DNA from: a virus
Taxonomy: Duplodnaviria > Heunggongvirae > Uroviricota > Caudoviricetes
DNA length: 10,989 nt
Reading direction: 5' to 3' (one strand)
Virus record (IMG/VR): IMGVR_UViG_2526164603_000035
The stretch's first letter is position 1, and the number at the start of each line of letters is the position of its first letter. A program made the position numbers and the translations under genes. The notes under the pieces are model-generated. The model was not told the DNA's origin and ran no database searches. It saw nothing but the letters and a program-made list of their open reading frames with translations. This document shows, piece by piece, positions 7,301 to 8,544 of the stretch.

Positions 7301-7866
7301 TGCTCCGCAATGATTTTGATGGTTGTGGCAGTAAACGCCGCGCCATTCGACTGAATGGTTAACGTGCTGCCATTTGTGGCAAGAAAGCCGTCTTTATCCA
7401 CGCTGAAGAACGTAGCTAACAGGATGTTGTCGGTTGTTGTTGCCGAGTTGCGACTGCTTACTAGCGTGTCAGGAACAGAACCGGAGAATGTTAGCTGCAT
7501 TGACCTGTTGGCGGTTCCGCTGGGCCACGTCCCGACAATCGACAGCTTGAAGAACAAGGTTTTGTTCTCGTTGAACACAACCATCTTGTTGTTAACGGTG
7601 TCGAAGAATGGTGCCAACGTCCCGGATGACGGCGTAAGCGTTTTCAGCAGGCTAACAAGGTTGGTCGGCGCTGTCGGGATGGTTACTGATACGCCAGAGT
7701 AAACAACCTCTGACTTCTTGCGCGTAGTGGCATACTCCAGAGCATTAATGCGCGTTTCATGGTCTGAAACCTGCGATTCCAGCGACTGAACTCTGGTATC
7801 AAGCGATGCAATATCGCTTTCATTCAAGGCAATCAGTGGGTTTACGTCATGGAGTGGGCTCAACAC
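7297..7866 (-). pseudogene. P22 gp26-like tail needle, 5'-truncated
   Basis: Translation has a heptad coiled-coil segment (NPLIALNESDIASLDTRVQSLESQVSDHETRINALE) and a Ser/Thr-rich C-terminal domain, as in needle proteins. The frame opens at GTG 7866 with an in-frame stop just upstream (7870-7872) and no SD, and the N-terminal domain found in P22 gp26 is missing. Confidence 0.5.
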
Positions 7867-8544
7867 CAGTCAGAGCCGCATGTACACGCAATAATCATGG
7901 TGAACGAAAGAAGCATTAATGGGCAAGCTGGCAAAATTGTCAGCAAATGGGTAACACTGGCAAACAATGCAATCCCATCAAATGTTCCTCCCCAGTGGGA
8001 TCTAGATTTGAAAGGTCAGCAATATTCAGAGCCTACAAAGTGTATAGGTAAACAGATTGATTACATGGCAAAGCCCGAAACTAAGTTAAATGACTTTAAT
8101 AGAGAGGCGAGCAAGAGCCTATATGATTGGTCAGATGCCAACGTTTGGGGTTATTCGAATGGCTGGGCGCGGCATGAGATAAAAAAAGAAACACTTTCTA
8201 TCACTGGCTTTCATGCTGTAAGACGCATACTAAAAGCCGTTCAGGCATCAAGGAAAGACAACTACAAAGCTAAGCGACAGATACAGCGTACATTGAAACG
8301 ACAAGACATAAATCGATCACCAATCACCCCGTTCCAAGCACCGTTAATTAGCAAACACGATTGGGATTTATCAGTGATAGCGGTCACCAAAGAGGCAGAG
8401 ACAGAGCGCAGGGAATTACTATCCTCACAGATAATAAACTCGAACAAAGTACAAACCCACCCACTGTTAAGGATGTTAAGAAGAGCACGAGTGAGAGCAT
8501 CCAGAGCCAAAAGAGAAAGCGGAGGTTATGACCATTACTACTAG
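7849..8544 (+). pseudogene. ORF with HUH-endonuclease-like motifs (rolling-circle Rep or relaxase-like), apparently 5'-truncated
   Basis: Contains EPHVHAIIMVN (HUH-type motif His-hydrophobic-His followed by hydrophobic residues) and, about 60 aa later, DYMAKPETK (Tyr-x-x-Lys). This order and spacing resemble motifs II and III of rolling-circle initiators, though short motifs can occur by chance. The frame is open from 7768, with no SD and no motif I. Confidence 0.3.

Follow-up and report, generated by a model that had tools for sequence, protein, structure and literature searches.

A probable deletion scar in the argW region of Escherichia coli O157:H7 joins remnants of an Sf6-like prophage and a Rep-encoding island

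The stretch of DNA analyzed here (10,989 nt, hereafter the window) contains a junction at positions 7825/7826 that is very probably a deletion scar, left by illegitimate recombination within a pair of mobile elements that had integrated in tandem at the tRNA gene argW, as judged by comparison with related sequences. To the left of the junction lies the 3' remnant of an Sf6-type tail-needle gene (7297 to 7825, minus strand), and to the right lies the 3' remnant of a rolling-circle rep gene belonging to an argW island (7826 to 8544, plus strand). Sequence matches identify the content of the window as the argW region of E. coli O157:H7: over 1,601 nt surrounding the junction it is 100% identical to EDL933, TW14359, Xuzhou21, and many other O157:H7 genomes, and UK bovine and human O157:H7 genomes match the whole window at 100%. 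The original prediction described a head-to-head meeting of two 5'-truncated genes at about 7867, within an interval of 7760 to 7900. Both truncations proved to be real, but the breakpoint itself lies 41 nt to the left of 7867, still inside that interval.

The argW gene, a tRNA-Arg(CCU), occupies 3449 to 3523 on the plus strand (ARAGORN and the EDL933 annotation), and a search for the att core showed that its 3' end (3509 to 3523, core CTGCAGGGGACACCA) forms the attL of a composite element. An intact prophage integrase gene of the Sf6/KplE1 type lies at 3649 to 4842 on the plus strand (RefSeq "prophage integrase IntS," with a RefSeq start at 3685), and its product carries the Pfam domains Arm-DNA-bind_3, Phage_int_M, and Phage_integrase. 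The minus strand then encodes a chimeric open reading frame (ORF) identified by Pfam as gp20-like and acyltransferase (oac-like) sequence (5017 to 6153), a complete gene for a gp7-like DNA ejection protein (6163 to 6843; Pfam P22_gp7, E = 5.7e-90), a complete gp14-like gene (6830 to 7300; Pfam DUF2824, E = 8.4e-65), and a needle-knob ORF with a GTG start (7866 to 7297 in the ORF list). On the plus strand, the ORF list gives a 231-aa ORF (7849 to 8544), to the right of which are a 58-aa ORF and, on the minus strand, a 470-aa ORF (9214 to 10626), the latter being a cargo gene of the island in a variable slot shared with other island alleles.

What remains of the needle gene is its last 529 nt, beginning at the third base of codon 107, so that the first 320 nt are lost and 175 aa are left (residues 108 to 282 of 282). 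The remnant matches the Pfam C-terminal knob profile Phage_tail_NK (PF16532) over all of its positions (1 to 175 of 175; E = 1.7e-117), and the same profile falls at residues 108 to 282 of the 282-aa Louie needle; the Sf6 needle is also 282 aa long. At the DNA level, identity to Louie, Kapi1, N7, and Sf6 is 94 to 96%. Compared with the needles Sf6 gp9 and P22 gp26, the O157 remnant shares residues 108 to 282, comprising the end of the coiled coil and the knob, and lacks the N-terminal 107 residues, the start codon, and the ribosome binding site. In P22 gp26, the counterpart of these 107 residues anchors the needle in the tail. As had been observed from the sequence, the minus-strand ORF opens at GTG 7866 with a TGA one codon upstream (7872 to 7870) and with no Shine-Dalgarno-like sequence before it. 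A full-length needle of this family would have about 282 codons, an N-terminal tail-plug domain, and a start of its own, and with 175 of 282 residues the O157 copy falls short of this. RefSeq lists the O157 needle gene as a pseudogene ("incomplete; missing N-terminus"), and the remnant is best regarded as one.

The rep remnant consists of the last 719 nt of an HUH gene of 350 codons; it begins at the second base of codon 112, having lost the first 334 nt and with them residues 1 to 111. We identified it through a homologue search, Pfam and NCBIfam searches with the plus-strand ORF of 231 aa having been uninformative, even at an E value of 10. The homologue (P0001) is a 350-aa protein with 97% identity that belongs to PF23343 (REP_ORF2-G2P); the intact protein passes the family threshold with 29.7 bits (cutoff, 27.8), and intact copies appear in RefSeq as "rolling circle replication-associated protein." The sequence of the intact Rep had no match in the PDB at an E value of 1. 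The remnant in the window maps to positions 811 to 1529 of an intact rep locus (L002). Intact homologues show the motifs of HUH initiators in canonical order, namely, motif I (YSFTFRP or YFLTLKP), the HUH motif (HVH or HIH), and YxxK, whereas the window copy has no residues 1 to 111, no motif I (YSFTFRP, at about residues 83 to 89 of Rep), and no Pfam or NCBIfam match. It does retain HVH at 7879 to 7887 (residues 130 to 132 of the full Rep), which the original prediction had correctly noted as the first recognizable motif beside its proposed junction, and YMAK with the catalytic tyrosine at 8062 to 8073 (residues 191 to 194). The absence of a start signal for this ORF was likewise borne out: ATG 7849 corresponds to the internal Met120 of full-length Rep, and neither it nor ATG 7897 is preceded by a Shine-Dalgarno-like sequence. 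A scan for promoters and terminators showed nothing promoter-like pointing into either ORF at the junction.

The position of the breakpoint is a comparative rather than a statistical result. DNA matches to the needle end at 7825 (position 529 of the query) in six P22-like phage records (Louie, Kapi1, N7, phiKp_30, and two of Sf6). A 251-nt junction query matched 820 records, and in a sample of 60 of these, all E. coli matches to the needle alone end at 7825 and all matches to rep alone start at 7826; in sampled genomes without the junction, nearly every match covers either query positions 1 to 126 (needle) or 127 to 251 (rep). Since needle homology ends at 7825 and rep homology starts at 7826, positions 7826 to 7866 of the needle ORF read rep DNA in antisense, as a false 5' extension on the minus strand that runs for 13 to 14 codons to a chance GTG. 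No related genome was found with a continuous intact gene across this position. The 251-nt query is 100% identical in 309 complete genomes, and the junction is therefore not an assembly artifact.

Three-way alignments indicate that the join is blunt, with 0 bp of microhomology and zero inserted bases, as judged against relatives that are 94 to 100% identical in the aligned flanks and do not include the true parents. On the needle side the identity of these relatives is 94 to 96%, and on the rep side it reaches 100% over the 125 nt past the junction in Z1323CEC0010. At the crossing, the needle-side relatives read ...CATTC/TGAG, the rep-side relatives read ...TTCGA/AAGG, and the window reads ...CATTC/AAGG; the four rep-side relatives agree with one another here, as do the three needle-side relatives. 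A search for microhomology or insertion sequence (IS) remnants at the junction had been proposed as a check, and neither was found. Needle and rep homology abut without an extra base, with no IS end or remnant between them, and a search for repeats and hairpins around the join gave only short chance matches. We rejected IS-mediated adjacent deletion, there being no IS copy, IS end, or repeats at the join, and site-specific recombination between att sites, the sole att core of the window being that at 3509. Illegitimate recombination dependent on short homology does not fit either, as no base at the crossing is common to both sets of relatives. We infer homology-independent end joining as the biochemical route.

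Comparison with strains that carry an intact prophage at argW had also been proposed. The Sf6/P22-like prophage is found alone at argW in PSJ-36 and no107, two genomes that match the junction query at two places each, with IntS adjoining argW and torI at the far end; in both, the prophage abuts the csc genes, and there is no island in the stretch examined. This layout agrees with published descriptions of Sf6, HK620, KplE1, and Kapi1, in which attP lies between int and xis. In PSJ-36 (L009), a 16-nt sequence (TTGCAGGTTCGATTCC) identical to the T-arm region of argW occurs inside the prophage, just upstream of torI; the att core is distinct from it and lies on the downstream side of torI. The 16-nt sequence may represent an extension of attP that resembles the tRNA.

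The second element is an island of 10 to 12 kb with the argW 3' end directly repeated at its two borders (the att cores), and the intact rep sits in this island directly at argW in E. coli O6:H16 M9682-C1 and in Z1323CEC0010. Its genes run in the order P4-type integrase (428 aa), a 251-aa protein, AlpA, small DNA-binding proteins, Rep, cargo, a small ORF, and a serine recombinase. The conserved backbone to the right of rep stops near 9051 to 9085 of the window. In EDL933 (L001), the attR core of the island, which falls beyond the window, is kept at about 16860 to 16875 with the loss of one G (CTGCA-GGGACACCA) relative to strain 7/2 and Z1323CEC0010.

We located the two elements in tandem with a synthetic query made of torI and the start of the island integrase, and in many genomes torI is directly adjacent to the island integrase. 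Strain 7/2 (L011) carries the undeleted tandem in the orientation of the window and is collinear with it on both sides. From the argW side, it has the Sf6-like prophage, a middle att (core at L011 37149), the island, and attR, beyond which the DUF4942 remnant and the csc genes are the same as in O157. The prophage part comprises minus-strand late genes with a complete needle gene (L011 8914 to 9867, minus strand) and the head, lysis, replication, immunity, and early-left genes, ending in torI; the island part comprises the integrase, AlpA, Rep (plus strand), cargo, the serine recombinase, and attR. Position 7825 of the window corresponds to about L011 9442, and position 7826 corresponds to L011 41012, where rep homology begins on the plus strand, with a gap of 31,569 nt. 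Because 7/2 has both flanks in unchanged order and orientation, separated by about 31.6 kb, a simple deletion reproduces the window, with 7/2 serving as a structural model and not as the actual parent, given its other cargo, its divergent N-terminal part of the needle, and its 93.6% identity on the island side. The intact tandem was in no case found together with the 470-aa cargo gene and 100%-identical flanks. Of the recombination, inversion, or deletion breakpoint that had been put forward, deletion is thus supported by the collinearity of 7/2, while inversion conflicts with the preserved order of the flanks. The separation of a P22-like late remnant from other DNA at this breakpoint also stands, but that DNA is a second element that integrates at argW, formerly in tandem with the prophage, and not random DNA.

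We propose an ancestor in which argW was followed by an Sf6/P22-like prophage with IntS first, late genes on the minus strand, and TorI at its far end, and then by the middle att and the 10- to 12-kb island. Breaks after nt 320 of the needle gene and after nt 334 of rep, with the ends joined without homology, would have removed the prophage genes from the 5' end of the needle gene to torI, among them gp10 and those of the head, lysis, replication, immunity, and early-left regions, together with the middle att, the island integrase, the island regulators, and the first third of rep. Both cut genes would then be dead fragments without a native start, ribosome binding site, or promoter, and the two elements would form a single attL-attR unit, about 8.55 kb long, that keeps the cargo gene and recombinase of the island and that, having IntS and no excisionase, would be fixed in the chromosome. 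The comparisons directly display the breakpoint, the parentage of the two flanks, the undeleted tandem, and the distribution of the junction, and they suggest that one event made the junction.

Decay of the same array has taken other courses elsewhere. In L006 (GCA_963575575.1, 8445 to 10768), a minus-strand gp16 gene stands head-to-head with an N-terminal fragment of Rad52 that is fused in frame to rep from about residue 212. This combination of a head-to-head scar and a head-to-tail Rad52::rep' fusion is an independent decay of the same argW array and supports the tandem model. The rep gene has been truncated repeatedly in E. coli: besides the Rad52 fusion, P0003 has lost 35 aa internally, and an integrase fusion occurs at about residue 257. 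For this integrase::rep' chimera (P0011), no record was found.

The prophage remnant in the window carries a further scar, at 5503/5504, where the 5' part of a gp20-like gene (6153 to 5504) is joined to the 3' part of an acyltransferase gene (5503 to 5017). The fusion is in frame, and the resulting 378-aa product, named "phage DNA ejection protein" in RefSeq, matches the Pfam families Inj_translocase (aa 12 to 217) and Acyl_transf_3 (aa 230 to 343). In other genomes, matches to gp20 alone start at query position 205, which is window position 5504. This scar marks a second, separate deletion in the same remnant, and prophage decay here was therefore not a single event.

The existence of this second deletion, and of different partial decays of the same array in other lineages, is what would be expected if the array had decayed in several steps, with the needle/rep join being the last of a nested series of deletions or a chimera imported by homologous recombination from another lineage. 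We regard such a history as rather unlikely for the join itself, since a single deletion from a 7/2-like array gives the window exactly and further steps are not required; moreover, the count of genomes with the 5503/5504 scar, 309, equals that for the needle/rep junction, which fits old linked events, and no intermediates are seen. We give a smaller chance to the reading that loss of the mobility half of the island (the integrase, the regulators, and the 5' part of rep) reflects recurrent selected domestication rather than neutral decay. Lineages would then repeatedly immobilize the argW island and keep its cargo slot, and the 470-aa gene kept in all O157 and O55 genomes would be an uncharacterized gene for antiphage defense. 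In a weaker variant of this view, the Rep fragment, which lacks motif I and keeps the HUH motif and the tyrosine, would still be expressed and do something. The layout of the island resembles that of defense islands at tRNA hotspots of E. coli, sharing an integrase, AlpA, a replication gene, variable cargo, and a recombinase. One argW island allele carries GapS6a/b, which is annotated as a defense system; the O157 cargo has no PADLOC match.

Some rolling-circle replicons, such as phiX174 with its gene A, carry their origin inside the rep gene. The break falls within rep, a gene that has been cut recurrently in E. coli, and an enzyme-directed join could accordingly be imagined in which the island HUH Rep nicked an origin inside its own gene or in which prophage excision went astray. 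This we consider very improbable, because the independent truncations of rep end at different places (codon 112, about 212, and about 257, in addition to the internal deletion in P0003) and so define no single hot spot, and because there is no hairpin, repeat, or att core at the join. Head-to-head truncated genes can also resemble the end of an inversion, a possibility listed in the original prediction, or might arise if the island had inserted into the needle gene, but the probability of either is negligible. The flanks are arranged as in the undeleted tandem, in order and in orientation; after an inversion, the inverted 5' part of rep would lie beside the needle remnant. The true left end of the island consists of att and the integrase, and 3.7 kb of island are missing at the junction, and hence this is no insertion of the island within the needle gene. 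A 2.4-kb segment of the lost island DNA occurs in only 229 of 5,426 genomes, and none of the 60 matches sampled from these is named O157 or O55, which indicates that the 309 junction genomes do not keep it elsewhere. Deletion from the tandem array thus remains the reading that we prefer.

The 309 genomes with the junction include O157:H7, the O55:H7 strain DEC5D, and strains listed without serotype, from which we infer that the junction is older than the divergence of O157:H7 and O55:H7. Together with 5503/5504, it provides a clean marker carried by genomes of both O157:H7 and O55:H7.

The composite unit from argW to attR corresponds to Sp16 of O157:H7 Sakai, with which it shares its locus, published as argW. 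Published accounts describe Sp16 as a conserved, fixed prophage of O157 whose backbone is "chimeric or highly disrupted" and unassignable, with no circularization, replication, or packaging. The accounts that we found do not give the breakpoint or state that the right half of Sp16 derives from a separate argW island that encodes Rep and not from phage DNA, and a literature search on Sp16 as a P22-like element of Sakai had no match. In the EDL933 genome, about 8.55 kb lie between the end of argW and the attR of the island, which agrees with the published length of Sp16.

That Sp16 is two elements welded by one deletion would explain why it could not be assigned to a phage family. It would be unable to excise because the deletion took torI, the middle att, and the second integrase, and the lack of an excisionase together with a damaged attR (the 1-nt deletion) fits its published failure to do so. 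KplE1/CPS-53 of K-12, Sf6, HK620, and Kapi1 use the same att site at the 3' end of argW, with the same core, and have the same IntS-type integrase adjoining argW, with TorI at the opposite end. KplE1 is likewise a decayed remnant. Unlike these relatives, the O157 remnant retains the integrase and, of the late region, the portion running from gp20' to needle', torI being lost, and its distal end belongs to another element rather than to the attR side of the prophage itself.

The junction is a case of ordinary prophage decay in an already described cryptic prophage. As a textbook decay scar in a known defective locus, it carries little weight for biology at large, and the gains are small ones: the exact parentage of both halves of Sp16 and the recognition of RefSeq and PHROG entries as truncated Rep. 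The RefSeq entry WP_000245915.1 ("hypothetical protein," 215 aa) starts at ATG 7897 and covers 7897 to 8544 of the window. The 215 positions of phrog_30534 exactly match this ORF, which corresponds to residues 136 to 350 of the 350-aa Rep. Both entries are the tail of a truncated Rep and not a phage protein family, and in phrog_30534 a pseudogene fragment has been propagated as such a family; the annotation of both would need correction.

Between rep and the serine recombinase, window positions 9052 to 10800 constitute a variable cargo slot. Its alleles include GapS6a/GapS6b in Z1323CEC0010 (L012), 330-aa and 821-aa genes in O6:H16 (L005) and 7/2 (L011), a ParA-like gene in L006, and the 470-aa gene in O157, and the slot may hold defense genes. 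The 470-aa protein has no match in Pfam, NCBIfam, or PADLOC and matches only phrog_13435 (unknown function). PADLOC also found no matches for the 58-aa ORF or for both 7/2 cargo proteins. We regard the 470-aa protein as a candidate uncharacterized defense gene product. Integrase-bearing defense islands have been described as a general class (PMC10121019), and a search of that text did not find the argW island named.

To the left of argW, the window (1 to 3328) contains the early-left end of a lambdoid prophage whose tyrosine integrase gene (2084 to 3328, minus strand) abuts the 5' side of argW. It includes a truncated MT-A70 methyltransferase ORF (934 to 1263), and ead/Ea22, DUF551, and similar genes lie just beyond the window. 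EDL933 lacks this prophage, and yfdC adjoins argW there; in certain O157 lineages, published work locates Stx2a or Stx1a prophages at argW. Many of the best-matching genomes align to the window only from position 206. In other genomes, positions 1 to 205 align as a separate piece 0.1 to 1.6 kb away, and in some of those with the displaced piece an IS1203 copy lies within the matched stretch. The DNA near 205/206 is rearranged between strains.
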